Source of the DNA: Eledone cirrhosa
Lineage: Eukaryota
Reading direction: 5' to 3'
Assembly (NCBI GenBank): GCA_964016885.1
Contig: OZ024742.1
Span: 322,958,001 to 323,022,000 of the forward strand
DNA length: 64,000 nt
The notes beneath the pieces were generated by a model that made no database searches, was not told where the DNA came from, and saw only the letters and a program-made list of their open reading frames with translations. Below are positions 7,001-63,430 of this stretch, piece after piece (positions within the stretch are counted from its first letter, which is position 1; each line of letters starts with the position of its first letter). The position numbers and the translations under genes were made by a program.

Positions 7001-7387
7001 TGGTTGTCATTGAAAATATAGTAACAAAAGGATTAAAAAACACATTATTTCATGGAGCCCCTCAATTTTTTCACAGAACCCACTTTGGGAAACACTGATC
7101 TTGACAAATTCCACCAATTGTAATTTATGATGAAAAGAATTGCTGAAGCCTGCTTCTCTCCATTTCAGGTGGGTGCCCGTTACAACGCTTTTCATATCGC
7201 CGCCAAATTGAATAAACCTGAGGTGATAAAAATAATCTTTGACGTCATCCAGGAACCGACTTTCTTTTGCAGATTGTATGGCATCAGCGATGACATTGTA
7301 TGTGATAGGGCTGAACGTCTGATAGACTTCTACCTCAACACACCTGACAAAGGGGTTTGTATAGTCTCCTCTTACCTCTTTACACAC

Positions 7388-7431
<44 letters not shown>

Positions 7432-16400: not shown

Positions 16401-19400
16401 ATGTGTATACATATATACATGTGTATACTTGTATGCAAATGTATATATATATGCGTGGGGACATAGAAATAATCAGGCTGGATACTCGATCACGCGGTTA
16501 AACCTCTGGGAGTGAAGGACCCCTAGCATGTGTCAGAGCATTCTTCTAGGAGAAGGCAACTCAGGAAACTGGGATAACTCCAACATAAAACCTGCAGTTC
16601 AGTAGTTACCGATGATGTTAATCTTTTCTTCTTTTCGGGTTATAGTTACTGTCTCTCAGAGTGGGATTGGCTCGGTGCACAGTCTTTCCTCACTTTAAAA
16701 AGAATCTTCACACACAAGCATTGCACGGTAGCATTAATTAATAATGGGGTCGATAAAATAAAGTACCAGTAATGCACTGGGTAATTGCTGGCCTTGTGCC
16801 TAAAGTGGAAACAATTAATTAATAATTAATAATTATTAATAATGTTATATTGTGCAATGGCCATACTCGATAACGAGGGGACAGCCATCATATATATGGG
16901 TAGATATACACATGTGTACACTCATCATCATGATCATTTTATGTCTAGTTTCCATGCTGACAAATGATAGACAGGTTATCACAGTCTGAGACTCTACTGG
17001 TTAGGTGACCATGTGTTGTTCATACATCCCAAATTTTGATATAGATTCTATGGCTGGCTGCCATTCCTAATGCCAACCACTTTATAGAGTGTACTTGGTG
17101 CATCTTTTGTGGCACCTGCAGTACAAATTCACACAGTGTATCATCATCATCATCATTTTACGTCCACTTTTCCCTGCTTGCAAGGGTGGGATGGGATGGG
17201 TCCTATTCAGCACAGCATCTCTCCACTTGTCACGGTCCTTCGTCATCTGCTCCATGAGTTTCAGCGATCTGAGGTCTACTCTCACCACCTCTGCCCATGT
17301 TTTTCGTGGTCTTCCTCTACTGCGTCTTCCTTCTACTGGGATTTCTTGACACTTCTTTACCCAGCTGTCATCCTCTATGCGCATCACATGTCCATACCAA
17401 CGCAGTCTCTTCTCCCGCACACTACAATTTATCCCTCTCAGACACAGTTTCTCTCTCAACACATCCATGCTCGGTCGTTCACGCACATTGACATTGCACA
17501 TCCAACGGAGTATGCTTGCTTCATTTCTCTCCAGCCATCACATATCCTCTGCAGTTGCTGCCCGTGTCTCTACCAGGCAGCATCGCGCATCTCACACAGG
17601 CATCGTATAACCGTCCTTTCGTACGCAGAAACCCTTCTTTGTCAACAGAGGAAGCAGCTCCCTAAACTTCTTCCAACCCGTCCTTATTCTAGATACTGCC
17701 ATGCTAATCTGATCACCTAGGTACCAGAAGCTATCGACCACTTCTATAGAACCTACTAATTTGACCCTTTCTCTAATCAGTTGCGCTAATATTCTCTCTG
17801 CCACTTTCATAACCTGATCCATCAGCTTTATGCCCCTATAATTGCTCCCCTCCAGAGCATCCCCTTTACCTTTGTAGCAATTTATGAGAATACTGCTGCA
17901 CCAGTCTTTGGGTATGACACCACCATATATAGCTTGATTGATGATGCGTGCAACCAGTTTAGTGCCTACTTGTCCTGATGCCTTCAGCATCTCAGCCTTA
18001 CAATTTTCCTTAATTGCCTCTTGGATCCTATATTCGTTAATCTCAATAGCTGGTCCCTCTGTCGGGTCTACTGGGGATAATTTCTCTCTCTCCCATTCGT
18101 TCTCCACATTCATCAGTCTCTCATAATAACATTTCCAGGCCTCCTTTTTTTGATCATTCGTGAGACTAAGTACACCGGCATCATTCCGGACACACTTATC
18201 TCCAACAACATCCTGATTTGAAGTTTGCAAATGGTTAGTGCACTTGCATCACAAAATTCAAGAAGCCTCACTGCTTCTTCATTTCTTGAGCCATAACCGT
18301 GCCCACCATGTACCCCAGTGTATCCATCCTTGAGCTGTTCAACATGACCATTGAAGTCCCCTGCTAGAATAACGATGTCTCAATCCTCTGTCATTGTGGC
18401 TGTCTGTAAAAGTTGTTCGTAAAAGCAGTCTTTCTCTTCTTTACCTAGGTCTGCCTGGGGACCATAGGCAGAGATGACTGTCAGTACTCTCTTGCCTACA
18501 ACTAACCTAAGTTTAATTATTCTATTACTAACTCTAACTACCTCTATTGTCTTATTGATCCATCTCTCAGCCAGTAAAATGCCCACCCCACCTAACCCAT
18601 CATCATTACTCACCCAGAAAAGCTTATAGCTAAGATGTTTGCCTGCAATTAGTCTTGCAGAGGCACCTCTCCATTGCACCTCTTGCACACAGCATACATC
18701 CACATGCCTTCTCTCCAGCATCTCCACTATCTCTCCAGATCTACCTGTTAGAATGCCAACTTTGAGGTGTGACATCTTCATATTCTTGTTCTTGTTCCTG
18801 TTATGCGATTGCTTGATGACGGTCAGGGGGTTCTCGCACATGGCCACACCAGCCACCCCACTACCGTGCGCAGCCCTAACATGGTTAGTTTACGCAGTTG
18901 TTGCGATTCTCATTTTATTGAGGCACCAACACTACCACTTTAGAGAGTGTAATGGATGTGTTTTATTGTGGCTCCATAGTAATCTATATTTTAAGAGTGT
19001 TTATGTTTACCATTTCATTGCAGTTGCTCCCAGAATCTATGAGTCCTACTGTAAAAAAACAAATCGCAGCATTGTTCTCTGGTGATTATATATATTCTTT
19101 TAAGTTATTACACGAAAAGCAACATCAGTTTGAAGCATTTGTAGATTCATCATAACCACCATTATATTGTTGCTAAGATCTGACAAGGAAGCATTTATGA
19201 AGTTGCTTGATCTGTTAGAAATGACAGTCAAATCTTGAAATTTAGAAACTGAGGTCCTTCAAATAAATCCATCAGTGTACAGGGCAGTTTCTTTCTGAAC
19301 TCATATGATCACACCTGTGACCCTATAATTTGCAATGATAGGCAATTTACCTAGAGAACAGGCTTGCTAAATACATACTGATTAAGTGTTCAGGGGGTCT

Positions 19401-33300: not shown

Positions 33301-34792
33301 GGCATCATATAGCCAGCCTTTCATTCAAAGAGAGAAATCTTTTGTAGTCATTGAACTTTGTTTATACCATCAGAACAACCTCCTCCACTGCTAATTAGGT
33401 CCTCTAAGTAATAGATGCTATCAACTACTATGAAACTTCCTGAGATTGCAAAAGTTTATTTACTACCAAACCCCCCCCCCTGTGCATCTACCACATACAA
33501 AGTCTATCTTTTCTGTTAGCCTGCATGCTACCCCACCACACCTCTTGTATACTCATGTTTTATATTGTATAGAGTTCCTACCTAATTCTTTTCTATATAT
33601 TGAGCATAGGCCCTTCCCTAAAGGGACTAGAGTCCTGCCGTTTTTCCTACTTACTGAAACTTTGAGATTTATAGTACAAATTAATGGGGGAAAGAGAGAA
33701 CACGTTCGTCACAGATTAGTAATGATAGACTTAGGTAAATTAACAAAAAGAGGACAAAGCAAAACGAAAAACAATTTTTAAGGGGAAACTTTATAAAATT
33801 ATTTTTTGAAAATAAAAGTACAAACAAGTCACAGAACTCCAGGGTCATCGGCAGTTTCGACCCCTACCAACTACTGCTGGTCCACCCGGGGTCACAGCAT
33901 CTGACACAAGCCAAAGCACTGTCCAGTGGAGTAAGAGGATAGAGACAAAACAGTAACTTATAGAAATTAGGCTATGACAAATACACATAAATTTTACGTG
34001 ATGTGTATACATATGCAATGTCATCATCCTTTAATATCCATTTCCCTACTAGAAACTGTCGGTCTTCCTTCGGGGAAATTTAGAAATGGTTACCCTTAAC
34101 AGACTTATAATCAAAGTATTCCAAACGTCACCATTCCGTCTTTCGTGTATCTCCATGATTATCAATATATCCCTTTTTTTTTAAAGACGGTACGCGTACA
34201 TTTGGCTGCTATTTCTCGGACGTCGAAAGCCCACGTAGAGATTTCCTGGTTGACTCGCTGTCTCCATACCCCTCCTCGTACTATTTTCTGTCGTTATCAA
34301 GTTACCTCCCTTGTAATAGCAATTACATAGCGAAAGAGTTAATGTTAGTGTATAATATGCACATGTTATTGATTTTCCATTCTTCTTTAAGAATAAAAAT
34401 GTCTTTATTTCAATAGTTATTTTCGTCATACAACAGTTTGGGAGGAGAGAAACTATAGTGGGTAATTCGTTTAAGTAAAAGGAGGTCCTGAGTAAAATAA
34501 ATGTTGGGAACGACTACCATCGTCTCTTGTTTTTTGTGTTACGGATAAATAATATTTTGAAAAACATTCTCGTGAATTTTTAAAATATGATCAATTCGTA
34601 AGGCGGGATAAGTTTTAGTCCTTTGATGAATTAATTTTTTTTTATTTTTTGTCAACGCAAGATCTGCGGTTTGCTCTCTTCTGAGACCAACTATAGGTTA
34701 TCTCCCCTGACACTTGACACGCAGCATCAAAACTTCATCTTTTCATACTAAAGTTGGTAAACATTGAAACTCCAGTTTCTAAAGTTACCGCA

Positions 34793-37700
34793 ATGGCCTC
34801 TCTGTGGTTGTTTGCGACGTTAACTGTAGTCGGTACTATTCTACTATCCATAAGCTTAGTTGACACCACTTCTCATCACGATAACAGGCTGTCCATTGTG
34901 GTGTTTGGTGGAAACGGTTTTATTGGTTCAGCTACTGTGTCTCGACTCTTGAAGACCAACCATTCCATCACCTTGATTAATCGCGGTAACTGGTACTGGG
35001 ACTCGGAAGCTTTGATTAAACCCTACGTTCGACATCTCAGGTATATATTTTCATCTCTATTCTATTATTATTATTATTTACGGACTGAGTTCAAATCCCG
35101 CCGAGGTTAACTTTGCCTTTCATCCTTACGGGGTCGATAAAATAAAGTACCAGTAATGTACTGGGTAATTGCTGGCCTTGTGCCAAAAGTAGAAACAATT
35201 ATTATTATTATTGGCAGTTGGCAAAATGCTGATGTTAATTTTTTTCCATCTCATTATAAAATTCGATCGAAGTCAACTTTACCTTTCACCTATTTGGAGG
35301 CGATAAAATATCATTCAAGTCCTAGAGTCGATCAAAAGACCCCCCTCCTCAGTTGATATTTTGCCTTAATTAGAAACCACTACTGTGGGGCGGTCTATTG
35401 GCAAAATAGAGCGTCGGACAAAACCGACATTTTATTTTTGAGTTCAAATACAGAAGGTGTCTACGTTCACATACATCCTTCCGGGGTCAATAAAATAAAG
35501 AACCAGTCAAGTACTGGAGACTATATAATTGATTGTCACCTCCCCACGAAAAACTGTTGGTCTTGTGTCTAGATTAGAAATTATTATACTACTATAAATA
35601 ACAATAACGAATAGGCTATAGAGCCGGTAAACCCTAAAGGGATGTAACACACATCGCTATCGTGTTTTACCAGCCTCTTCTGTTGTCTGTATCTGTTTAT
35701 GTATTTACGTGTAGATGTGTGTGTGTAACTAAAGCGTAACGTATGTGGACGACTAAATGATTTTAACTTGTTTTTTAACAAGTGATGGTGGAAAAGATTT
35801 CAAATTGTCTTAATTCGGGCCGCAACTCATGGTGTCTGACACTCTCACCGGCTACATAGCCTCTTCCTATAAATAATTACAAATTAATACGCCCAAATGT
35901 TTGGTCCCGTGTCTGATAAAATTTATTTCGTTTAATCGAATACATACCACTACCTCAACATAATTGTTTTCCTTCCTTTGTGTAAAATGTGTCGTAATCT
36001 GTGGTGTCTGTGATCAGTAGAGAAAAATAAAAATGTAAGACGAGGTTGACAAAATCTCCCTCGCTCAACGTCAAACAGGGGAAGATAACTCCAATAAGGT
36101 TAGGTGGTCGGAATGTCCAAACTATAGAAAATACAGATTAGAATGGATTTGGTCTTTAAAATCAACTGTTAGACCTCCTCGGTGAGTGTATTCTACTCAA
36201 CTATGTCCGTTTGTATATTTTTTTCTTGCAGACATACAGGAACCTTTTCAATCTGAAGAGATATGTTTGGTTAACATTTTCTTATTGAGGCTCTCAGAGT
36301 TGCATAATTCATTTTAAACAAATTTACAAATACACACGAAAAAATAACATGAATTTAGCTATTTTTTTACTCAAAGCAATGTTTGGCTAAAATTGCTTCA
36401 GTGTCCAGATCATAATAATAAATATATACAAAAATAAATGAAATGTGTCAAAGTACCGAAGAGTCACATGCAACTTCATATCCACATGTTTTGACCCCAG
36501 CTATAAGTAAACATCATGTCCTTTCTTTGACACTACAATGTAATGACTGCTATATTATGTGTCCTATATATTAAAAAAAAGTGAAAGATGATGAAAAGCA
36601 GATGCTGCTTGCTTTCCTAGTATTTCCTGTCATTCCCCTGCCTCCTTACTTCTTGCTAACGAAGTTCTTTATGTTATAGAACTACTTCTTAGCAATAAGA
36701 GGAAACTTCATCATAGTAACTTGACCTGCTAAAACCAACAGCCAAACGTTCACTCATTGTCTATATCAGTGTTTACCAAATTTATCACTGCAAAGACATT
36801 TTGGGGTTCTATGAGATAAGGTGTCTTTTAATAAACTTAAATAAAAATTTATAAAAAAAAATTTTTTTTAATAAACCAATCTCTTTAAAGCAATTGTATG
36901 TCATTTAATACAAGTATTTTAAGCCCATTTCTCTGCTAAAGTGGAAAGTAGCCTTGCAAGCTCTATCACAAGCTGTATGTTCATAATGGGGTCCTTTTTA
37001 AGACAATGTTTTTTGGCACCAGCCCTTTTAGTTGCCCCTCACAACATGCAGGAATGTGGATACACAAAGCTGTTTCATTAAATGTGATATCAAAATTAGA
37101 GTGATGGGGATTTTCTGTAAAATATAGTTATGGGTTCTGCAATTTTTAGAAAATTGTATACAAGTTCCACAACAATAAGTTTTGGAATCACTGATCTATA
37201 TCGTCAAACAGAGAGAGAGCGAGACGCCAATTATTTAGAATGTAGAGCAAGCTGGTCATATCACAACTCACCCTATATGAATACAGTCATGTAAACAAAT
37301 AAACTTTAGTGATGTCTTATGCTAAATGACTGCCTTATCTGTATTCATTTTTGCTGTAAAACAAGCATGCCTGTTATGATATAATCTCATGAATATATTA
37401 TATATGTACATTCTTTCCACATATGTAAAACCTATGTATGTATTTTTATTCATATTTCTTGTTATTTCTTTCACAGATGTGATCGTATGCAGTCCCTTTA
37501 CAAGTGTCAAGATTTAATTGACTTCTTCAGATCAAGTTCATCCATATATTTTGACACACTCATTGATTTTAGTGCTTATCATCCTTTAGCTGTCAAAGAA
37601 GCTCTGTCAATCTTTCATTCTAAAGTTGGTTTATATATATTAATCAGTACAGATTCTGTATATGACGTGTGCATAAAAAATCATACAGCACCCAGCAAAG

Positions 37701-38431
37701 AGACTGATGCTGTTCGACCAGTCGATGAAACCATGAGTGAGGATTATGCCAAAAATGACAACTACGGCCATTTGAAACTTCAGTGTGAAGAAGAACTTCA
37801 GCAACAACCTGAAGATGGGGAAATACCCTTTCTAATATACCGTCTTCCTGATGTGATTGGTGCCAGAGATAACACATACCGCTGGTGGCTTTATCAGTTG
37901 TGGATGAAACTACGTACATATCTTGAAAGGCCTGTGTCACTTCCTGCAAACCTAGTCAAACAGGAGATAAGTTTAGTTTATGTTGAAGATGTAGCTGATA
38001 TAATTGTACAGCATTTAACTAGGAGTGAAGGTATTCACAATGAAGCCTACAATTTAGCCATTGCTGAGACCCCAACACTCTATGAAGTTCTCACTGATTT
38101 GAAGAATTCCCTTAACCTAACAAATCTGGATATTTTCATTGAACCCCTGACCTCAAGTTCTGTATATCTCTTCCCATCGGTGAAGTTAGGTCCTGTTGAT
38201 GTATCCAAGGCCCAAGAAAAACTGAACTGGAAACCAACATCTTGGTTGAAGATTCTGGGGGAAATAGTAACCTTCTATGAAACTGCCATGAGAGAAGAAA
38301 GATTTGAAATTCCGAGACGGGATGTTATTCATATGATGCAAAGACATTTGACAAAACGGCCATTACAAGTTCTCACTGGACTCAAAGCAGTTTATGGCAT
38401 TAACTATCCCTTTGAAAAAGAGGAACTTTGA
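34793..38431 (+). CDS. NAD-dependent epimerase/dehydratase-like extended SDR, 400 aa, exons 34793-35040 and 37477-38431, signal peptide and C-terminal KEEL
   Basis: VVFGGNGFIG Rossmann motif, LINRG, LISTDSVY, YGHLK (YxxxK), RLPDVIG, VYVEDVA; phase-2 splice CTCAG|gt...cacag|A keeps the frame. Confidence 0.9.
36767..37193. mobile_element. hAT (Charlie-like) MITE
   Basis: CAGTGTTTACCAAA...TTTGGAATCACTG ends; 8-bp TSD gtctatat/atctatat. Confidence 0.7.
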
Positions 38432-45466: not shown

Positions 45467-46852
45467 GGCGATACTTGGTTTCAATTATTAGCTCCACCCA
45501 CGACACGTCATCAGCTGCTTGATTTTTACATGGTCATTTTCTTACATGCTTCATTTTTACACGAAAAAATATTGAATTTTTAGAATAAATATTTATTAAA
45601 ATATTAACAGAGAAAATTAGATTTTTGATTTATTTTTTGAACAAAATAAATATTTATTTACAGTTTTTCACAGAAAAACTATGCTTCATTTTTACATGAA
45701 TATTTATTTAGTTTTTAACAGAAAAAATATTGCTGCGAAATACATTTTTTTAAAACACATTTACAGTTTTTAACAACAGAAAAAAAAAATTCTTTAAACA
45801 ATATATTGTTGCGATATACAGTTTAACATTTTTTTCGAAACATTTACCCTCACCAGTTGGATACGTGGCATTACGCCATCGCCACTCAAACTCCCTTAAA
45901 TACGACTGAAATAGTGGTCGGCTGGTACCATTGATGCGTTTGAGTTTTTTTTTTTTGGCATGAGACCACATGCCCTAAATATTTTGCATGTGTGTACTTG
46001 ATATGGGATCAACGAAATGCTGCGAATGATTGACAGTCAGATGTGTATAACGACTAGGCAAATTTGGTATTTGATTGTTAGCCCGCCACTCATCTGTATG
46101 GATCATAGATCCATTTGCACAGTGCCTTTCAATGAGAGGCAGCAAAGTCTCAGCAGTACGATCAGGGATTTCATGGAGAAAAATATTGCGGGGATTATTA
46201 GTATCAATTCCGCCAATGTCCTTCATGCCAGAGCCCACGAGCATATTTACGATGAAAATATTTGCTCTCATCAATTTGTACAGTTATTGGTATTCCGTTA
46301 GAATCAAGACCACCGAGTATCGCCGGATTTTGCTCAACCCATTCACTACATACATCACGCATAAAATTGAACCAGTCGGTAACGGTAGTTGCATTGTTAC
46401 AGCGAATTTGATTTGAAATAACAACATTTTCGGTGTCAAAACACCAATAGTAGATAAAATCGAGAATTTGTTGTAGATTCAAATGACTTCTAGTAAAAAA
46501 TGATCCACAACGAATCGATTGCGTAAAGTTGCATGCCTTACATTTCCATCTAAAGCCATCAATCCCGTCTATCAAAGTCACAAACGAACATAAATTATTG
46601 CAGGCAGTACAATTAACAGTATTTGAAATTAACCGGTTGCTAGCCAGAAATTCCAGAGTAGAGCGATTATTTGCGGTAATTAAATGCATTTCACGGTGTG
46701 TTAAATTCATATTTAAAGTTTCTTCTGGTAAATTAATATTCTCAACAATAAGCAGCAGCAGCAGCAGCAGCTAATGACGTATCGTGTAGTGGGTGGAGCT
46801 AATAATTGAATGTCGCTGATGATAATTTAGGACACTAAAATCAAGTATCGCC
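45467..46852 (-). mobile_element. Merlin (IS1595/ISXO2-like) DNA transposon, complete ends, pseudogenised transposase 45750-46710
   Basis: TIR GGCGATACTTG / CAAGTATCGCC plus subterminal aattattagctccaccca; 8-bp TSD acactttg/acaccttg; CxxC...CxxC, VQIDES, IHTDEW, VNHS..FVDP, YLREFEWR; one frameshift and QNI*GMW. Confidence 0.92.
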
Positions 46853-47051: not shown

Positions 47052-47244
47052 ATAATCATATATGGGTCCATATACGCGTTTAAGCTGTATTTATTTATTT
47101 ATTTCATAGTAACAGTAAATATCTAATCTCTAACTTTAGATATGTTTTCATCCAAATGACAGAAGATTTATTTTACTGTTTGGATTACCAAACCAAGTGA
47201 TCTCCCTTCTTTACTTCCCTGCACCGTCCACGTGTAGAGACATA

Positions 47245-48195
47245 ATGGCGGACAAAGCTATTCCTGGTTCTTCTTCAGAGAAAAATGAAACTCCTCTCCC
47301 TTTACCCAACTACAAACGGGTTAAGAATAAGATCTTACGATCTCAAATGTTCAGGAAAATGCTCATGGAGAAAAAGAAGATCGAAATAGCCAAAAGGAAA
47401 GAGAGAAAGAACATGATAAAAAAGGGATTACCTGTTCCTCCTAAGCAAGAACCAAAAACTATTGAGAAACTACGTGTGGCCGATGAAACTCTTATCTCGC
47501 AGAAAGATGAAGAAGTCGAAATAGACGAATCTTTAGATGAAATGGCAGCCCATTTCAAACGCGAAACGATTCCCAAAATACTGATCACAACGTCTTGTCG
47601 ATCGAAACTGCGGACTTACCATTTCTGTAAAGAACTTACGACCGTCTTTCCGAATGCGACTTACTATCACCGAAGAACCATAGCCATAAAAAATATCGTG
47701 CCCCAGGCGATCGAAAAGGAGTTCACCGACATCATTATTATAAACGAGAACAACAAAAAGCCTAATGGAATGCTTCTGGTTCATCTACCCGATGGACCTA
47801 CCATCCATTTTAAAGTAAGTAACGTGAAGCTACGAAAAGAAATACCAAAATGTGATTCTTCAACCGACCACAGACCTGAGTTGATACTTAACAACTTCAA
47901 CACCCGGTTGGGACACACAGTTGGACGTATGTTCGGGGCGCTCTTTCCTCTCGACCCTCAATTTCACGGACGGCGTGTTGTTACTTTTCACAACCAAAGA
48001 GACTTCATATTTTTCAGGCACCACCGTTACGTGTTCAAAAACCAAAAACGAGTTGGACTTGCGGAACTAGGGCCCCGCTTCACCCTCAAGATGAGATCCC
48101 TACAGAAAGGGGTTTTTGATTCTCGTTACGGAGAATACGAGTGGTTCCATAAAAGACACGAAATGGAAACTAGTAGACGTAAATTCTTCTTATAA
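47245..48195 (+). CDS. RPF1: Ribosome production factor 1 (Brix domain), single-exon CDS, 316 aa
   Basis: PKTIEKLR, PKILITTS, HLPDGPT.HFK, RPELILNNFNTRLGHTVGRM, VTFHNQRDFIFFRHHRY, ELGPRFTLK, C-terminal METSRRKFFL; ATTAAA about 40 bp after the stop. Confidence 0.96.
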   Translation: MADKAIPGSSSEKNETPLPLPNYKRVKNKILRSQMFRKMLMEKKKIEIAKRKERKNMIKKGLPVPPKQEPKTIEKLRVADETLISQKDEEVEIDESLDEMAAHFKRETIPKILITTSCRSKLRTYHFCKELTTVFPNATYYHRRTIAIKNIVPQAIEKEFTDIIIINENNKKPNGMLLVHLPDGPTIHFKVSNVKLRKEIPKCDSSTDHRPELILNNFNTRLGHTVGRMFGALFPLDPQFHGRRVVTFHNQRDFIFFRHHRYVFKNQKRVGLAELGPRFTLKMRSLQKGVFDSRYGEYEWFHKRHEMETSRRKFFL

Positions 48196-53059: not shown

Positions 53060-54541
53060 AAAACTAGCAAATAAAAACCTTCGCTAGTTTTAATCTTAAA
53101 ATTACCATTGACACTAACCTTTCCAATGTTAATTTTCTAGATATAAACCTAGATCTACCTACTACTTCTTATAAACCGTACCATAAACCTAATGAAAATT
53201 TAAAATATATAAATAAAGGCTCTTGCCATCCTCCTATAGTTTTTAAAAACCTTATTCCTAATATTAGCCATAGGATCTCCACCCTCTCTTCCTCAGAAGC
53301 TATTTTCAATAAGGCATCCTCCTACTATAATAAAGCCCTTCAAAATAGCGGATTCAGTGAACCGATTAAGTACATACCCAACAATACTAACTCCTTTAAA
53401 CATAATAATAGGAAAAGAAAAATAATCTGGTTCACCCCCCCCCCCCCCCCTACTCTTTAGCAGTTAAAACTAATGTAGGCAAAAAATTCCTAGAGCTCTT
53501 AGATAAACATTTCCCTAGAACACATAGATACTATAAGATCTTCAATAGAAACTGTGTCAAAATCAGCTACTCCTGCAGTCCCCCTATTAAATCTTATATC
53601 CTCAATAAGAAAATACCCAGAGAACATCAAAATTGCTTCTGTAGAGTCAAAAGTGAATGCCCATTACAAGGTAAATGCAACACCAAAGCCATTGTATATG
53701 CGGCTAAAGTGACAACCTACCAGCCACCAGCGAACGATATGTGGGTATGACACAAGACAAATTCAAAACGCGTTATTACTCACATGTCGCATCTTTCCGA
53801 CATCCTGAAAAAAGATTTACAACAGCTCTGGCTAGCAGAATATGGGATTTGAAAGATCAAGGTATCCAATATAAATTAGATTGGTCAATTTTGAACCAAT
53901 CTAAAGAATATGCAAGAGGAACAAGAAGATGCGCACTCTGCATAAGTGAAAAATATTGGATTTTACAGAACCTTAAATCACCAAAAACCTGCCTAAATGC
54001 AAAAACAAATTTTCACCAGTTGCCCACACATGAAATCACACTTGCTTTCCAGCTCTTACAAACTTAACTCACTTTCAGATACTTATCCTCCATAAACTCT
54101 TGTTCTTCACTTTCCTTAAATTACCCTCTTTACAGACTTCTCTTTCTGATTTACTTTTATTTTTATTTTTCACTTTACTTTTACTTCACATCCACCAGTG
54201 ACCCCCCCCCCCCCCCCCGCTTTTTGATTCACTTACCTTATATCTTCACATTTCCACACATTTCACTTCCCCATTTTCTTTCACTACCTGATAACACTTG
54301 TCACTTGCGTTTTCAACACCAGATATATTCTGTTATCTCTCAGCCGTTTTTATGTGTTTACTTCCGTATAATTTGTACTCATTTATTCATACGGCTGGTT
54401 TTTAATTTGTATCTATGCGTGTGAATATGCATGTGTTTGTATGTGTATACGAACGCATTCGTATGTGTGTGTGTGTTTATATCTGTTTTTTACATACTTA
54501 TATATGCGTGTATATGTATATATATATATATATGTATGTAT

Positions 54542-54583
<42 letters not shown>

Positions 54584-55445
54584 GCGTGCGTGCGATTAGA
54601 TATACATGTGCCTATATATGTGCTTTGTGTGTATGTATGCGCGCCTTTGTATGTATGTACGCATGTCTGTGCTTTTGTCTGTACGTATTTATATATATGT
54701 GTACGTACGAACCTATGTTTTCTATTTTTTCTAGTGTTATTTTATAATTGATAACCTTACTTTCTCTTTGATTTAAAATTTTTTTTATTCTCATATATTT
54801 TTTCATTTTTACATGTATCGACCTTCAGACTGACACTGCTTTGACTGATACACTCCCTTCCCTGTATTTATCACTCGCATGTATGTCGCGCGTGTGTCTG
54901 TGTTTATACGCGTGCTTTCATACTTGTATGTGTATATATTTCAATCCTCAATACCTGAGTCTGGATGTACGTTAACTCTATTATCTTACAATTTCTTTTT
55001 CAACATGTATTATATACGTATTTGTGGTCACACATACACTGATATGATTGCCCTCATATATGTACTTACGCACACATTTTTTCACTATACACATGCATTT
55101 GTACATACACACATATGTACATTTGTGAGTGAATATACACACATTTATACACATACCCTAACTATATTTCCTTATTTTATTTTTATATATCTCTTGCATT
55201 ACTTGTATTTATATATTTTTTTGCCCGTTAAACTTTTGCCTTTCTTGAGGAGATTTTTCAAATATTTCACTGTTTTAAATTTCCTTGTCCGACGAATGAA
55301 TGAGGACGTTTCTTGTATTCGGGAAACATCTGGTAATGAGGTAATTATATTGTATTGTTTATTATACATTAAATTTAGCTCTGGTACTTACATAGAGCAC
55401 TCTTCACTCCTATGACTCTTTCAATTTTCAACGGAAACTTCAATA

Positions 55446-55520: not shown

Positions 55521-55746
55521 ACGGTTAGCTTTCCTCTTTGTTGTTACTTGTCTCACTCGCTTTACGCGTTTTAATTGTCCTAATAACTTAATTTAGTTAT
55601 TATTGCACCAACGTGAGGTATATGATTTTTAATGCAATGAAATATCTATGATCGTTGGCAAATCACTGATGAGGGACTCATTTTATAACATGTTATCCAT
55701 GTGCAACCTGCAGTATTCTTCTCCCCATTTTTTCATATATATATAT

Positions 55747-56504
55747 ATATTAATTCAAAATATTAACAAAAATAGACATTCGTGTGATCAAGTATATTTT
55801 ATTATACATATTTCAGAGGTACTGAGCTATCTTCAACAGAACGTCCTCATCAGATAAAATAAGATGATACATGACATACCCTGACTTAGTAGATGGTTAA
55901 GATTCAGTCATGGTAGTGAATAAGATATGACAAAACTCAATATTTATATACCTTAAGATGGAACATGAAAAAATTTACATATAATACAGAGGGTGCGTGT
56001 GAGAAAGCTTAAAAATACATAATAGCAATTTACATAACTGTTAGAGATTCAAATAATTTAAATTATTGAAGAAAGAGGAAAGACAGAGAAACAGATGAGG
56101 AAAAAATATAGTTACTAGAAATATAGAAAGCAAAAGAGAATTGAGGAATAATTTTTATAGTATAAAGCATAGGGAGGGAGATTTGTATTGTCGTGGATGA
56201 ATAGGGTGTGATTAGATGATGCAAAAATATATATATCTATATAAATACATGAATATATATTTGGGCATAGCTTTGTGAAAGAGTAAACTCGAATCTTTGA
56301 ATTATCTAGAAGTATCCACCAATCTAAATATTAAATATATCTGGGTGTAATTATATGAGGGTTTAATTTCGAGTCCTTAGTTAATTAGAAATATACTAAC
56401 AATTAATTATATACACTATATATATCCAAACGTATCCGGCTGACCGTTAAATTTCGAATCATTTATGTTAGTTCAGAATAATGAATTAATCTAAAGGTAT
56501 AATA
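55747..56504 (+). repeat. Outer inverted repeat, left arm (decayed Penelope RT sequence)
   Basis: Reverse complement of 61535-62306 with few substitutions and two small indels; residual KLESLNYLEVSTNLN and ISKRI motifs. Confidence 0.93.
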
Positions 56505-56535
56505 TTTCAGGCTATAAAAGTTTATAAATATCTAT

Positions 56536-57631
56536 ACCAGATAGAAAAATGCGTACAGCAAAAAAAAAGTAATATTGTTGGAATATAAACCTTTAAAAAT
56601 ACAGGACAAGAAACTAAAATAAAACTTTAAAAGAATAGGACAAGAAACTAAGATAAAACTTTAAAAGAATAGGACAAGAAACTAAGACAAAACTTTAAAG
56701 AATTGGACAAGAAATAAAAAATTTTACAATAATATTAGTGGCAAAATTTTTATTGGTAAAAAATCGAGTTCCACATTCATAGGCTCTGGGTTCCACATTC
56801 AGAGGTCGTCGTCAGACCGGGGGGATCATTTGATCCTGGTTTGAACACCAATTGGGCCATAACCATACCCCTATTTCATCATTCGGCGACACGCCTCATG
56901 TGTCATGCATAATGTGAATGGACCCATGGGCCCATGAGCACAGATCTTGAGCAGCAGCGGACGGTCTTGTCGTCCCGCTCATCCTTGATCTTGACCAACC
57001 CGTCCATCTTCTCCTTGCATGTTGTCCTTGAGTTCAAGTCCGGCAGTCCAGATGAATGCGTGCCACAGCTTTCTGGTACAGGAAGGGGGAGCAGGAGGAC
57101 TGGAGGGATGACGGGACAGAGGGAGGGAGGACCGGTGGTTGAGGGAGGTGCCGTAGTCGGTGGTCAGAGTCGACATCTTGTCCCGGTCGTCTTCTCCATC
57201 TTCGTCTGGTGTTGCGGGACCAGAAGTGCATTCTTGGAGGAGACCTGCAGCTGCATCGGCCAATTCTTCTCGCAATGGTCATTCTGACGGAGCAGAACAG
57301 CTCAGCCAACCAACCCCAACCAGAACCAATTGCTCAGGGGCAACGCACAATGAGAGCATGACAATTATTATGCACTAATCAAGAAGATACTGGGGCATAG
57401 CACAGGAAACGAATAAAAAAATGTTGCCACTAATATTATTGTAAAATTTTTTATTTCTTGTCCAATTCTTTAAAGTTTTATCTTAGTTTCTTGTCCTATT
57501 CTTTTAAAGTTTTATCTTAGTTTCTTGTCCTATTCTTTTAAAGTTTTATTTTAGTTTCTTGTCCTCTATTTTTAAAGGTTTATATTCCAACAATATTACT
57601 TTTTTTTGCTGTACGCATTTTTCTATCTGGT
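56536..57631. mobile_element. Foldback-like cassette: about 220-bp TIRs (56536-56755 / 57412-57631) with internal ~32-bp tandem subrepeats around a GC-rich ~650-bp core
   Basis: accagatagaaaaatgcgtacagc... mirrored by ...gctgtacgcatttttctatctggt; unit aggacaagaaactaa.ataaaactttaaaagaat repeated 3-4 times in each arm. Confidence 0.85.
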
Positions 57632-57904
57632 CTACTATTTTTTAAGGCAATGCAAGCAACAACTATCTAATAATTAAATGATCATAGTGAATTACTGACA
57701 AGTGATTGACATTTTAAAGTTCTTTTGAGTATAATTGCAATCTAGTTGAGGCAACTGGCTTAATGACAAAGCTAGTAAATCATGAATGCATTTGAGATGA
57801 TTAGTGCATAATAGTGAATTGGTGAAACTTGTGCATTTCAATGGTGTTACAACAATAGATGTAAGTTATATAGTAGTAATACTTTATCATTTTAACTTTT
57901 TAGA

Positions 57905-58264
57905 ATGGACAAAAACCCATGCAAAGAAATGACTTTGACTGCAATGATTCTCTCCAATTTACTTACAAAGCAAAACGTGGTCAAATACCTTATCATCTCT
58001 GATAAAATGCCCATTGAATCACTGAAAATCGGATGCATGGAATTCCTCATAAAATGCACCTATGAATCGGAAGCCATCACATATATCAATGGATATAGGG
58101 AGTTGTTCACACTGGAAGACCATCACTTCATTTGTGACTTCATCAGTTATCTCCACGATTATCTCAGACACCCAATGTCATTAATGAGAGGTGATCCAAT
58201 GTGTGAGCATGTAACTAATCTTATAGAAGTTGTTATCGATCACCTGGCTTTTAGTGACATTTGA
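57905..58264 (+). CDS. Small protein (119 aa) resembling a stand-alone SPOP/BPM-type BACK domain
   Basis: Open ATG-TGA frame in AT-rich DNA; LSNLLTKQNVVKYLIISDKMPIESLKIGCMEFL...INGYRELF resembles SPOP [33 protein letters not shown]...SGWKSM; AATAAA at about 58341. Confidence 0.55.
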   Translation: MDKNPCKEMTLTAMILSNLLTKQNVVKYLIISDKMPIESLKIGCMEFLIKCTYESEAITYINGYRELFTLEDHHFICDFISYLHDYLRHPMSLMRGDPMCEHVTNLIEVVIDHLAFSDI

Positions 58265-58435
58265 CTGATAATGATGTATTTTTAAAAAGTATGTGTACAT
58301 TCTTGTTACTATTTTAAGGCAATGCAAGCAACAACTATTTAATAAAATTTAAATTTAAAAATGACCATTGTGCATTACTAGTATGATGACATTTTATTAA
58401 GTTACAAAATTAGTCAGTCAGCCATAGAACAAGGA

Positions 58436-59231
58436 TCAGGTTGCAAAAACATTGGCAAAAATTTGTGTCAATTTAAGATTTCCAACATTGTTCAAATGAA
58501 TCATATCTGGTTTGAAGTCAGATTTGTCAAATTTTGACCAATTTTCAATGTTGTGAAGATTGGGCAAGTTCAATTTTTGAATCATTTCTTTCATGCAGTA
58601 ATTAAACTTTTCTAAACGAGAATTTCTCTTGCCCAAGTCATTTTTATTTTCAATTACACTTTGTGGACGTGGAATGACACCACTGTAGAAAATGGGTGTA
58701 CAGTGGTGCTTTTCCGCTATTTTCTGTAGCCTTGCAAAGAGACTCTTCCCCTGTTTTTCCGGTTTTGTGCCTCGAATGGGCACTTTGTCCTTAATTTACA
58801 AATAAATGATTAATAAAAAATACTTGGGCAAAAATTATTGTATTACTTTGCACAGCTTTGTAGTGTCAACGGTGCGACGAGGATTCAGATCATTAGAGCC
58901 GACATGAACCACCAATACTTTCACAAAAGGACAACAGATAACAATGTTGGCGATTAACATTACCTGGCCCTGACGGGCCCCAGGTATACAAAATATCTAA
59001 GTATTTTTGTTGGTATGATAAGTAAATACATTTGAATTAATATTTTTATACCTTCTGGTCATTCGATTTCGCCACATTTCTAATTATGGATTTGTAAAAT
59101 CTGGCATGAATGTGAATTTGATCAGTCCAATTGCCCGATTTTAGTGAAAAGTTTTGATTCGAAATGGAAATACTCCATTTCCGTGCCATGGAAAAAATGA
59201 ATAAGCCGATCAAAAAGCCGCGAAACATCAT
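58436..59231 (-). CDS. SGNH/GDSL hydrolase-like protein, 227 aa, exons 59231-59052, 58996-58847, 58789-58436
   Basis: Two phase-0 GT-AG introns (55 and 57 bp) join an open frame with KSIIRNV (block I-like), CIPGA (II), VVHVGSND (III), YSGVIPR and DMIHLNNVG (V); hydrophobic N-terminus. Confidence 0.8.
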
Positions 59232-59269
59232 TTTTAATTAAGCGAAATTAGTGGATGCAAATCTCAGAA

Positions 59270-59706
59270 AATATTGTACACTATTTGCACCTATCGCACT
59301 ATTCGCACCTATTGGTACAAAAATATAGCGCACTATTCGCACCTATCGGTACAAAAAATCGCACGACTGTTAATAATACTAGAAGTGTAAACTATCTGTT
59401 GAATACCTGGTATATGAAGAGCAACCGATACGATCGGTCGGCGATCTGTCTTGATGAAGAATGAAGTGAAATTTTGGTCTGGTTGTTTTCATCGGTGTTT
59501 CGCAGAGATGCCGGCACGAACAAAGGTGTCAGTGACACAAAGTTGTCCGCTTGAACAAAGGTGTCGGTCCGACAAAGGTGTCAGTCAGACAGACAGTCAG
59601 ACAGTGTCACAGTCGGTGCGACAAAGCGATCGATGCGATTAAAAAAAATTTAACTCACATGTTTACCTATATTTTCGCAAACTATTGATAGATTGGTACA
59701 AAAAAT
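59270..59706. repeat. Short motif arrays upstream of the SGNH gene
   Basis: cactatt.gcacctat x3, ggtacaaaaa x3, acaaag.tgtc x4, cagtcagaca repeats. Confidence 0.7.
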
Positions 59707-59894
59707 AGTATATTGTCTAAAGTTCAAGACGATATTAGTCAGTTATACATAACATAATATAATATAATATAATAAATAAGTTACTGTTAATATTGTTAAA
59801 ATTAAGATTTTAGATCAATTATTATATTAGGATCATGTAATACATATATACTATAAATATACAAATCAAACTTCATGAATCATAAGGATAAGAA
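59707..59894 (+). repeat. Inner inverted repeat, left arm (pairs with 61026-61213)
   Basis: 188-bp reverse-complement match; covers the decayed GIY-YIG start. Confidence 0.92.
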
Positions 59895-59949
59895 CCAGAT
59901 TCAAAGTATATAAGTAAATTGTTTGCGATCATATAAGTGCCAAATAATA

Positions 59950-60700
59950 ATAAGTGCTATATAATTTAAAAATACAATAAAATTTTTAAGGATCTATATT
60001 GTAGTATAATATCATATTTAAAGTGTCTGCAAACATGAGAAAGAGAAAACATAAGATTTTCATCGACCCGAAGGTAACCCGAATTTAATTAAATTAAAAA
60101 ATAATAATCGTTATATAATTTAGAAAATATTTAACAATTATAACACTAGAATGTCCTTAAGTATCTAAAGTACTTATAAATGTAGCTAGAAGCATGATAT
60201 TAAACTAGATATTCACATTTGTCCAAATATATACAGAGTATTCTGTCCGGAACTCAAAACGATATTAATGATCCATATACATATAATAAATAATAAATAC
60301 AATCATTGTTAGTAAAGTTATAATTGAAATTTTACATCAAGTTAAGTGGAAAAAGTTTGTCGACTTGGATCGTGTGCGACGCATATACCATAAATATATA
60401 TAAATCAAACATCCTGGATCTTAAAACTAACATACTCCAAAAGAATAAATACATAAATGCATGAATGGTTTACGGTTCATTACAACTGTTAACCATATAA
60501 GCTATATATATTAAAAAAAAAAATACAAGAATCCCAATCAAATTAAATGTATCTACACAATCAAATGATATGCATATTCATCAAGAGATCATGTTAACAA
60601 TCTATATGTTTATATATTTATATAGAACCCTTAATCTAACATTAATCATATCATAAATGATTAAAAAATTATTATAAGGTTTTATAATCTGTTATAACAT
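59950..60700 (+). mobile_element. Second, diverged decayed Penelope-like copy
   Basis: Colinear patchy similarity to the reverse complement of 61026-61545 (gcaaacatgagaaag, agaatg..ttaa.tatctaaag, catttgtc.aaatatataca, aaatcaaac). Confidence 0.6.
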
Positions 60701-60748
60701 TTTATGCACTCTGTTGATAAGAGACGTCAAAAATTAGAACCTATTTAT

Positions 60749-62400
60749 TTAGTGTTTTTTCCTGACTTTTTGCGAGGCTTGGAATGTAGAGGGAGCTTTA
60801 TGAAGGCAATTTGAGAATAATTCACTTTTTTTGTTAATTAAATTTTCATAATTAGTGATTATTAATAGGGTCTCCATAGTACAGAGATTGCAGTTATGTG
60901 ATGTTGAAGAATTCAAGTAGATTCGACTATTACACAGCTTCGACCAAGAAATCGAGTATTTAAAATGTTTGTCTTTTAACGACCATATAAGTTGTGATAA
61001 AGAAGTCGAAGATTTCCTATTAGGATTCTTATCCTTATGATTCATGAAGTTTGATTTGTATATTTATAGTATATATGTATTACATGATCCTAATATAATA
61101 ATTGATCTAAAATCTTAATTTTAACAATATTAACAGTAACTTATTTATTATATTATATTATATTATGTTATGTATAACTGACTAATATCGTCTTGAACTT
61201 TAGACAATATACTCTTTGTATATATTTAGACAAATGCGTATACCTAATTTAATAATACCCTTTTTTAAGTTTAATTATAAGGCCTTTAGATATTTTAAGG
61301 CATTCTAATTGTTAATTTTAAATTTTTAAAGTTATAACTGTAATTATTTTCTAAATTATATAATGAGAATTATTATTTTAATATAACATTTTAAAAAAAT
61401 ATATAATATAAGATAATATAATTTAATATGGATTACCTTTGTGTGGATGAAAATACTAAGTCTCTTCTTTCTCATGTTTGCAAATACTTTAAATATGATT
61501 TTATAAATTAAATATGTTAGTCTTTAGATTAATTTATTATACCTTTAGATTAATTCATTATTCAATAAATGATTCGAAATTTAACGGTCAGCCGGATACG
61601 TTTGGATATATATAGTGTATATAATTAATTGTTAGTATATTTCTAATTAACTAAGGACTCGAAATTAAACCCTCATATAATTACACCCAGATATATTTAA
61701 TATTTAGATTGATGGATACTTCTAGATAATTCAAAGATTCGAGTTTACTCTTTCACAAAGCTATGCCCAAATGTATATTCATGTATTTATATAGATATAT
61801 ATATTTTTGCATCATCTAATCACACCCTATTCATCCACGACAATACAAATCTCCCTCCCTATGCTTTATACTATAAAAATTATTCCTCCTTGTCTCTCTA
61901 TCCCTGATCAATTCTCTTTTGCTTTCTATACTTCTAGTAACTATATTTTTTCCTTATCTGTTTCTCTGTCTTTCTTCTTTTTTCAATAATTTAAATTATT
62001 TGAATCTCTAACAGTTATGTAAATTGCTATTATGTATTTTTAAGCTTTCTCACACGCACCCTCTGTATTTTATGTAAATTTTTTCATGTCTCAATCTTAA
62101 GGTATATAAATATTGAGTTTTGTCATATCTTATTCACTACCATGTCTGAATCTTAACCATCTACTAAGTCAGGGTATGTCATGCATCATCTTATTTTATC
62201 TGATGAGGACGTACTGTTGAAGATAGCTCAGTACCTCTGAAATATGTATAATAAAATATACTTGATCACACGAATGTCTATTTTTGTTAATATTTTGAAT
62301 TAATATTAATAACTCCGGAAAACCAATCTTGTTGAGTGCTTGCAATCTATTGTAAAACTCATTCTTTGATTTATTCATTGAACCTTGTTTAACCTTTAAT
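60749..62400 (-). mobile_element. Heavily decayed Penelope-like element (RT + GIY-YIG); includes the right arms of both inverted repeats
   Basis: ORF 60749-61045 STSLSQLIWSLKDK..ISWSKL..CNLCTMET..LINKKSELFSNCLHK is a typical PLE endonuclease C-terminus; upstream RT motifs are degenerate; ends near (TA)n. Confidence 0.75.
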
Positions 62401-63430
62401 ATATATATATGTCAATCTCTCAGCCTACCGATTTCTATCTACCTTTGTCTTTCAGTTCTTGTTTTTCAGTTTGTTCTGTTGCATAACGACTGAAGTTGAT
62501 ATTTAAATTGTCGGAATACGTGCTGTTTCTATTCCGCCCACCACCTCTACTGTCTCATTATTCCACTCTCCCATCCTCTGGCTATTGTCTGATCAACAGC
62601 CACTTTAAACACTGACTAAACAACAATGAAATCACGAACATAGCCATCAACTTTCATAACGCCATTACCACCATCGCCATCACAACTACCAACGACAACA
62701 ACCTTCATGTCAAGATATCCCTAGCCCTAGAGTCTCTACGTAGTCGCTGAAATCACGCACAAGCATCTTCCTAGGAGCATCCAACAATTGTGTGTTTAAC
62801 TCATAATTTGCTAAGGCGGTGTAATGAGTCGTAGTTACAGCTCACATCTATGAATGTTTTAGCTGGCTTTCTACGATGAGGTTTCTTTGGTATTTTAATA
62901 CTAGGGGCACTAGTTCTACCATGCATCTTTCTCAACAACACAACCTGCAGAAATCGAACCCACAACCTATCCACTAGACCACGTGCTTTCACGGTGCAAT
63001 GAGAAAAGAACGAAAGAGGCGGGGAGACCTGTTTAGAGACTCTAGTTTAATGGGGCCCTGAATCATGTCATATCATAGCTACGGTAACTCCCAGATCAGC
63101 AAATAATCACGCCTGACTATTAATTATTATACTTCTTATTGTATAACTTTGCAACACACACGTCAAATTATGTGCTTTATTATACCACTTATATACTGTA
63201 ATGTAGTGATAAGCTTTATAATCTCTAACGTGGAAATTCCGTTTCACTCACTAATTCAGAATTAGTGGCCATGCGTGGAAAACATGGTACATGAAAATAT
63301 TTAATACAATTTTTTGTTAGTGATTTTATTTTAAAAAATGCCAAACCTTTCACAAAATACTTACAAAAGAAGAAATAAAAATGTTCCTTAAAACTTTTTC
63401 TTTTCCCTTATACAAAGTATTTATCTAGTG

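Follow-up and report, generated by a model that had tools for sequence, protein, structure and literature searches.

Unrelated mobile elements have repeatedly acquired SGNH esterases, and why they do so is an open question. The locus described here raises it again in an unusual form: what is a stand-alone, apparently spliced esterase gene with miniature introns doing between the long inverted repeats of a unit with no reverse transcriptase (RT) of its own? The window analysed is a 64,000-nt stretch of DNA, in which an initial annotation had joined three open blocks of the minus strand into one protein. The answer depends on whether the gene model holds, on what the protein resembles and on what carries it.

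The model of 227 codons, interrupted by phase-0 GT-AG gaps of 55 and 57 nt, held in all its coordinates (Table 1). None of the three exons contains an internal stop, and the predicted spliced product presents YKSII at residues 46-50, PGA at 65-67, HVGSND at 91-96 and PDMIH at 204-208. The two gaps have a GC content of 0.18 versus 0.36-0.45 in the exons, and AATAAA-type signals lie downstream of the frame at 58398 and 58343. When all ATG-to-stop chains with at most two short introns were ranked over both strands of the 6.6-kb unit, this model came first. Dinucleotide shuffles of 57635-59700 were used as a null in which any GT-AG gap of 45-75 nt was permitted, this lax version superseding a stricter one with an intron GC filter (mean 13 codons). 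None of the 500 shuffles reached 227 codons (mean 112, maximum 218), and the motif order was recovered neither in the 500 shuffles nor in the 27 other 2-kb tiles of the window. DNA contigs of four sequencing runs span the two predicted introns with no joint at either, an observation uninformative on splicing; we infer that the two gaps would be removed from the RNA. The initial annotation had also contrasted these gaps with much larger host introns, and the single host intron checked, by eye (35041-37476, about 2.4 kb), is indeed far larger. From its sequence features, the 227-codon frame is likely to be a spliced, transposon-type SGNH esterase gene.

Table 1. Features of the esterase gene and of the unit that carries it (positions in the window).
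Feature	Position	Strand	Details
Esterase exon 1	59231-59052	-	60 codons, residues 1-60; signal-peptide-like start, Arg44, Ser48
Esterase exon 2	58996-58847	-	50 codons, residues 61-110; Gly66, His91, Asn95
Esterase exon 3	58789-58436	-	117 codons + stop, residues 111-227; Ser146, Asp205, His208
Predicted intron 1	58997-59051	-	55 nt, GT-AG, phase 0
Predicted intron 2	58790-58846	-	57 nt, GT-AG, phase 0, two in-frame stops
Whole unit	55747-62306	.	6,560 bp, long inverted repeats at both ends
Left terminal inverted repeat	55747-56504	-	758 bp, candidate pseudo-LTR, abuts (TA)n run
Right terminal inverted repeat	61535-62306	+	772 bp, candidate pseudo-LTR
Candidate target-site duplication	55747-55754 (+) / 62303-62310		8 bp, weak; the inverted repeat itself accounts for half of it
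Type I hammerhead-like fold, left, outward	55795-55861	-	descriptor match 55853; stems of 8 bp (I) and 5 bp (II)
Type I hammerhead-like fold, right, outward	62192-62258	+	helix I 8 bp, CUGAUGA core, GAAA
Internal inverted repeat a	56533-56751	+	219 bp, four 34-bp tandem units; 98.2% to a'
Internal inverted repeat a'	57417-57634	-	
GC-rich spacer, likely captured DNA	56752-57416	.	665 bp; GC 0.53 vs 0.18-0.40 elsewhere
Older direct repeat 1	57633-57721	+	partner 58307-58403; 75% with gaps
BTB/POZ-like ORF, convergent with esterase	57905-58264	+	119 codons; language-model features only
Upstream region, candidate internal promoter (inferred)	59281-59604	.	9-, 17- and 34-bp short tandem motifs
Internal inverted repeat b	59703-59894	+	partner 61026-61217, 191/192 identical (99.5%)
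Older inverted pair	60005-60424 / 61035-61505		65%

Profile and structure searches point in the same direction. Pfam Lipase_GDSL_3 matched exon 3 (E 0.0038), and a read-through of exons 2-3 across the 57-nt frame-preserving gap matched GDSL_3 (E 0.0099) and GDSL_2 (E 0.018). The Pfam check proposed with the model returned the GDSL_2 and GDSL_3 families from the sequences scanned (exon 3 and exons 2-3), but always below the curated cut-offs, at 16.0-18.0 bits against gathering scores of 32.9 (GDSL_2) and 27 (GDSL_3). The single PDB match of exon 2 among 177,635 sequences was the ZfL2-1 ORF1 LINE esterase 4c1b (E 0.29), which also ranked second of the six PDB matches of the exons 2-3 read-through (E 0.35) and was aligned there at blocks II, III and V; exon 1 gave unrelated matches or none. 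Gly66 and Asn95 align with G165 and N195, the oxyanion-hole residues of 4c1b in blocks II and III, with a spacing of 29 versus 30 in ZfL2-1, and His91, four residues before Asn95, aligns with the transposon-specific His191. Block V carries D-x-x-H (Asp205, His208) in a part of the 4c1b alignment that is a low-scoring second stretch. The interval between Asn95 and Asp205 is 110 residues long versus 84 in ZfL2-1, 26 more, and the predicted pI is 10.0 versus 10.8. Ser146, which lies outside the printed alignments, is a candidate for the transposon-specific Ser228 from its S-G motif. ZfL2-1 is described as having the triad S143/D279/H282, the oxyanion hole G165/N195 and a pI of 10.8, H191 and S228 being specific to transposon esterases; its turnover is slow and it binds acidic lipids (PMC3905857).

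Close relatives of the protein were not found in the libraries searched. Exon 3 had no homolog among 1.84 billion representatives, nor among the 49 candidates of a longer search; the read-through of exons 2-3 had none among 31 candidates, exon 2 none among the three of its longer search, and the viral contigs contained no relative. One metagenome match (1 of 166 stretches) was rejected, since it hit an unrelated bacterial gene by chance. No conserved animal homolog appeared in 1.84 or 5.8 billion proteins, libraries that may include few such genomes. By its motifs the protein would resemble a transposon esterase, with profile scores under the family cut-offs. The motifs, the alignment to 4c1b and the sub-threshold GDSL matches support the original proposal of an SGNH-type, transposon-like esterase with tiny introns in a mobile element.

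Block I departs from the known enzymes. Its serine had been described as kept, which is right for Ser48 but leaves out a second candidate at position 44, which is Arg in this copy only. The G-D pair is absent in both registers, and S-F-Y-K replaces the usual G-D before Ser48. Ser48 stands 18 residues from Gly66 and is followed by Ile, like I144 of ZfL2-1. We take its surroundings, Y-K-S-I-I-R-N-V, to be the better match to block I. Position 44 is Ser at full depth in the contigs of runs X1 and X4; it is separated from Gly66 by 22 residues, exactly the ZfL2-1 spacing, and is preceded by a strand-like I-H-I-H-A. Because other copies have Ser where this one has Arg44, there are two candidate nucleophiles. 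Ser48 is the likely one and Ser44 a possible but clearly weaker choice; were it Ser44, the present copy would be catalytically dead. In either register, the loss of G-D needs more substitutions than recent decay supplies.

The N-terminus is hydrophobic, as first described, with a core of 9-11 residues (11-residue mean 2.5, best 19-residue hydropathy 1.33). This stretch is too short for a membrane helix but signal-peptide-like by eye, and the suggested membrane targeting is possible.

The gene lies within a unit whose terminal inverted repeats are 98.4% identical (738 matches, 12 mismatches, 3 gaps). A (TA)n run is found at the left end of the unit and another 92 nt beyond the right end; the end being nearly a palindrome, TA, AT and TTAA duplications are all readable there. 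Neither a direct upstream pseudo-LTR copy nor a clear 30-40-bp tail was seen at the unit ends. No ORF for an RT, endonuclease or transposase was found in the unit, whose longest unspliced frame has at most 124 codons. The older direct repeat flanks the BTB-like ORF, its partner overlapping the 3' region of the esterase. This ORF scored 0.89-0.91 to BTB clusters in the Atlas, with nine of the 10 best family matches in one clan and a recognition value of 2385; Pfam and PDB searches with it were negative and its predicted fold had a pLDDT of 39.8, and its BTB identity is a lead only. A possible GT-AG intron of 42-43 nt (57861-57903, plus strand) is located just 5' of its ATG, so the ORF may have an upstream exon. 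No family was matched by the GC-rich spacer, by the frames upstream or by a broken frame at 60870-61040; the last, on the plus strand, has 56 codons with one stop and reads as a broken helical exon. Frames of 71 codons (62196-62411, minus strand) and 74 codons (55633-55857, plus strand) cross the outer ends inward, probably by chance. The CpG observed/expected ratio is 1.38 at 59232-59702 versus 0.48 in host sequence at 20-50 kb, which is what one would expect of an unmethylated promoter or of a recent insertion.

Each terminal repeat contains a hammerhead-like fold about 50 nt inside the outer end of the unit. In the right fold, helix II has 9 bp with a single mismatch, loop III measures 6 nt and the site is AUA; in the left one, helix II is weakened by one change. 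The two terminal repeats were the only places in the 64 kb where the descriptor matched. Shuffles of the unit passed it 7 times in 3,000 at its loosest setting, once in 3,000 at the medium one and never in 3,000 at the observed stem lengths. In combining a long helix II with a helix III that is short and self-complementary, these folds agree with the hammerheads described for animal Penelope-like elements (PLEs), which also have a conserved G10.1-C11.1 pair (PMC4209133); here the pair 10.1-11.1 is G-U in both copies in place of the conserved G-C, and a C-to-T change before a G would explain it. Self-cleavage by the predicted folds is no more than a possibility, because Rfam returned no hammerhead at gathering score (and only chance matches by E-value), the bare core pattern occurs at chance level in the sequence (7 seen versus 5.3 expected) and the hammerhead fold, at -5.6 versus -10.7 kcal/mol for the minimum-energy fold, is not the lowest in energy.

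The reading we favour, and hold to be on balance probable, is that of a non-autonomous Penelope-like retroelement, mobilised in trans with its introns retained. Its cargo would be a transposon-type esterase standing on its own, in which the nucleophile loop is remodelled and a signal peptide may be present. The carrier has inverted terminal repeats, 758 and 772 bp long, and both contain a hammerhead topology of type I. PLEs are described as often inserting with an inverted pseudo-LTR at one end, as preferring AT-rich or (TA)n targets, as having hammerheads in their pseudo-LTRs and captured spacers, as retaining introns and as able to move intron-containing genes in trans (PMC3846280, PMC8557442, PMC11167929), and esterases are reported in a Neptune PLE (PMC3905857) and in Terminons (PMC6431247, PMC5408684). 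The template would be an RNA that covers the unit and is either unspliced or antisense; the RT/GIY-YIG protein from an autonomous PLE would recognise it by the terminal repeat and reverse-transcribe it at an AT-rich site, this repeat acting as the cis signal and both RT and endonuclease being borrowed. The inverted copy at the terminus and the inverted duplications inside the unit would arise by template switching, which would also have captured the GC-rich spacer and the BTB-like ORF. A separate spliced mRNA would start at an internal promoter and encode a basic esterase with Gly66, Asn95, Asp205 and His208 which, by analogy with ZfL2-1, might hydrolyse lipid esters slowly and bind acidic membranes, with its short hydrophobic N-terminus as a possible routing signal.

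Other assignments of the carrier were tried and rejected. A LINE ORF1p of the CR1/L2/RTEX type does not fit, with 37 residues before the domain and no ORF above 124 codons, and a Helitron/Helentron with a texim-like esterase does not either, no Rep/helicase coding region having been found in the unit or its flanks. A relationship between the unit end and the neighbouring Penelope remnant was discarded since 116 of 500 shuffles scored as well, and because of this dissimilarity no partner element is named for the unit. The tiny introns had been taken to indicate a mobile or a viral genome. The inverted-repeat unit and the multi-copy contigs argue for the former, whereas neither hallmark genes nor viral-contig relatives were found for the latter.

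The same gene could travel in a non-autonomous cut-and-paste DNA transposon of the foldback or Pack type, with 760-bp terminal inverted repeats (TIRs) and a hammerhead relic within them. This is unlikely in our view, given that the hammerheads lie about 50 nt from each outer end and face outward, as in pseudo-LTRs, and that no transposase remnant was found in the unit; the unit termini are also not known to match a superfamily signature (CAG, CAC, GG, AG). On the other side, the TIRs are long, near-perfect and present at both ends, TA or TTAA duplications are readable there, movement at the DNA level would retain introns without special pleading, and the loose ends of the contigs described below fit internally deleted copies.

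Ten of the 14 runs listed contain part of the stretch, and contigs of four runs were compared over 57640-59700, leaving out X5 (share 0.53) and X7, X9 and X10 (small shares). Run X1 yielded 79 contigs over this interval, 54 of them at 99% identity or more, 20 at 95-99% and five lower. Compared with the X1 majority, the present copy differs at 13 of 2,061 sites (about 0.6%), plus two small indels outside the coding blocks. Word depth is 550-1,310 for the main X1 contigs and 7.5 and 30.6 for others, a pattern that suggests a repeat family and gives no copy number. A minority variant class is present in X1, and 16 loose ends are listed across the four runs. A stepwise left-to-right fall of depth in X1 and X4, of the kind 5' truncation of a minus-strand retroelement would leave, was not counted, contig depth being unable to rank parts. 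Partial low-depth contigs labelled as two further organisms (C and E) are about 99% identical; they could stem from close relatives, from mislabelling or from traces, and we make no claim of horizontal transfer.

The gene had been proposed to be still intact inside decayed flanks. This part of the proposal fails: the flanks are young inverted repeats, 98% identical, and since the copy is only about 0.6% away from its relatives, the intactness of the frame needs no selection. The copy is intact mainly through youth. The 11 exon variants listed comprise three synonymous changes, eight that are not and no stop, the random expectation being 20% synonymous, and no listed variant falls at a splice site, as expected at this divergence. 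The young copies show no sign of selection and their variants look neutral. The search for paralogs suggested at the outset found near-identical copies and older diverged relatives in public DNA contigs, with no sign of selection among the young copies (3 of 11 variants synonymous). Among the older relatives, three 30-nt loose ends of more diverged contigs were read by hand, and each continues the frame through ten codons with no stop; one diverged loose end is 3 nt shorter and keeps S-G-N-x-x-D, and one keeps the hydrophobic residues 176, 179 and 180 after F172-N173. These open frames are a hint only of older coding constraint, the chance of open frames alone being about 1/9. Deeper and more diverged X4 contigs match codons 2-27 (59153-59226) at about 85% and at less than 80% thereafter; they represent older subfamilies of the same gene or of its 5' region. 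Contigs of X4 (after 58043) and of X6 (after 57774) leave the unit for one common sequence that is absent from the window, so other family members have a different internal make-up.

Part of this evidence can be turned against a functional protein. The esterase might be the accessory-ORF relic of a larger autonomous element, Terminon-like or Helentron/texim-like, with a broken loop, a protein that is non-catalytic or never made, and a frame still open because the master copy was recent. G-D is missing before either Ser, the variants look neutral, a T-rich run directly before codon 48 resembles, by eye, a decayed splice acceptor, and the junctions to sequence absent from the window point to larger or different relatives; catalytically dead GDSL derivatives in transposable elements are moreover described (PMC5408684). 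Going from G-D to Y-K or H-A nevertheless takes several changes, beyond what a divergence of 0.6% offers, while Gly66, His91, Asn95, Asp205 and His208 are all in place and, as read by hand, the frame stays open in the diverged contigs to either side of block I and around residue 173. We regard a relic as rather improbable.

Doubtful, and a little more so, is a helper-type Penelope satellite, RT-less and kept for a spliced, signal-peptide-bearing esterase with a new nucleophile loop (perhaps together with a BTB adaptor) that would carry the element RNA across membranes and let the family spread between cells and, recently, species; such spread would be compatible with near-identical contigs under three different organism labels. 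That the esterase is a domesticated or captured host gene, possibly secreted and passively amplified by the repeat, is very unlikely. Its signal-peptide-like start, introns and poly(A)-like signals could belong to such a gene, and texim genes and the Adineta NRPS offer precedents, but the closest solved match is a retrotransposon esterase including its specific His, no conserved animal homolog emerged from the 1.84 or 5.8 billion proteins (where such genomes are perhaps few) and the introns are far below the host intron checked. That the unit is a piece of an endogenous DNA virus or of a Polinton-like element, as the compact convergent genes, small introns, long TIRs and top Atlas match of the BTB-like ORF (a small cluster, half viral by 2 records) might recall, is extremely improbable, with relatives absent from the viral contigs searched (one weak PHROG match of unknown function, E 0.031), no polymerase, capsid, integrase or ATPase ORF found in the unit, and hammerheads in its ends.

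Several components of the Penelope-like reading have known counterparts. The protein is like ZfL2-1 (4c1b) and the CR1, RTEX and Neptune1_Ren esterases in blocks II, III and V, in the transposon-specific His and in being basic, and its domain of about 190 residues compares with 156-210 in Table S1 of the same source (PMC3905857). In contrast to the ZfL2-1 class, it is encoded by a stand-alone three-exon gene without coiled coil, arginine-rich region or RT ORF, it lacks the G-D of block I, and it has about 26 extra residues between Asn and Asp and a short hydrophobic N-terminus. The NRPS/pLTR captures mobilised by Penelope in Adineta vaga are similar in having an intron-containing gene between terminal repeats with no RT inside, an inverted end repeat, an AT-rich 8-bp duplication candidate and a captured spacer; that case is described as a one-off copy of a host gene with pLTRs of about 200 bp, two of them direct and one inverted (PMC3846280), whereas here there are two inverted ends of about 760 bp, the cargo is of transposon type and the signs point to many copies that are nearly identical. 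Terminons (Athena PLEs) share the terminal hammerhead and a GDSL/SGNH accessory ORF, but are described as 40-kb, RT-encoding and telomere-attached (PMC6431247, PMC5408684), while the unit here is 6.6 kb, RT-less and interstitial, and no telomeric repeats were seen by eye in its end sequences. MRC1/Chlamys (PMC8557442) and animal retrozymes (bioRxiv 10.64898/2026.07.22.740005) are likewise RT-less and PLE-dependent, and retrozymes bear hammerheads; the accessible parts of these sources describe no protein cargo, and retrozymes are short tandem arrays. Fish texim genes associated with Helitrons are also multicopy, intron-containing, transposon-linked SGNH genes, but with up to 15 exons, a canonical S-G-N-H and an adjacent Helitron coding region (PMC4021074), none of which is found here.

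Esterases of LINEs and PLEs, intron-containing esterases linked to Helitrons, gene movement by PLEs and RT-less PLE derivatives are therefore already known. A literature search that missed most of the subscription literature and Repbase turned up no description of a multi-copy unit that lacks an RT, ends in hammerheads and contains a spliced esterase gene standing alone. If the Penelope-like reading is true, the unit documents recent, multi-copy, Penelope-type movement in trans of an intron-containing gene, of which the published cases, as far as those sources go, are isolated. The ZfL2-1 esterase is reported to be active yet dispensable in cell culture, and a role in membrane crossing is so far a proposal (PMC3905857). 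In the young RT-less unit described here, the esterase appears as a spliced gene of its own, separated from both RT and coiled coil, and its expression, targeting, activity and selection can therefore be tested separately. Repeat classifiers take such units for DNA transposons, and catalogues based on ORFs miss their genes.

The unit has varied neighbours in the window. A decayed element at 53068-55400 (plus strand), which we take to be Penelope-like from its RT/GIY-YIG motifs, retains a frameshifted RT C-terminus, GIY-YIG-like frames and a microsatellite-rich tail, with a degenerate hammerhead-like core near 55300; Pfam gave no match for its frames. Several LINE copies, probably of RTE type and including one whose frame has 971 codons, occur together with the remnant of a probable ISXO2/Merlin-like transposase at 4470-11658, 17082-18889 and 45975-46770 (minus strand); the LINEs resemble those of octopus genomes. 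Host genes are represented on the plus strand by ankyrin/RNase H1 N-terminal exons at 715-23692, which we assume to be ANKLE2-like, by an NAD-dependent epimerase with a 2.4-kb intron at 34718-38431 and by an intronless Brix-domain gene at 47140-48195.
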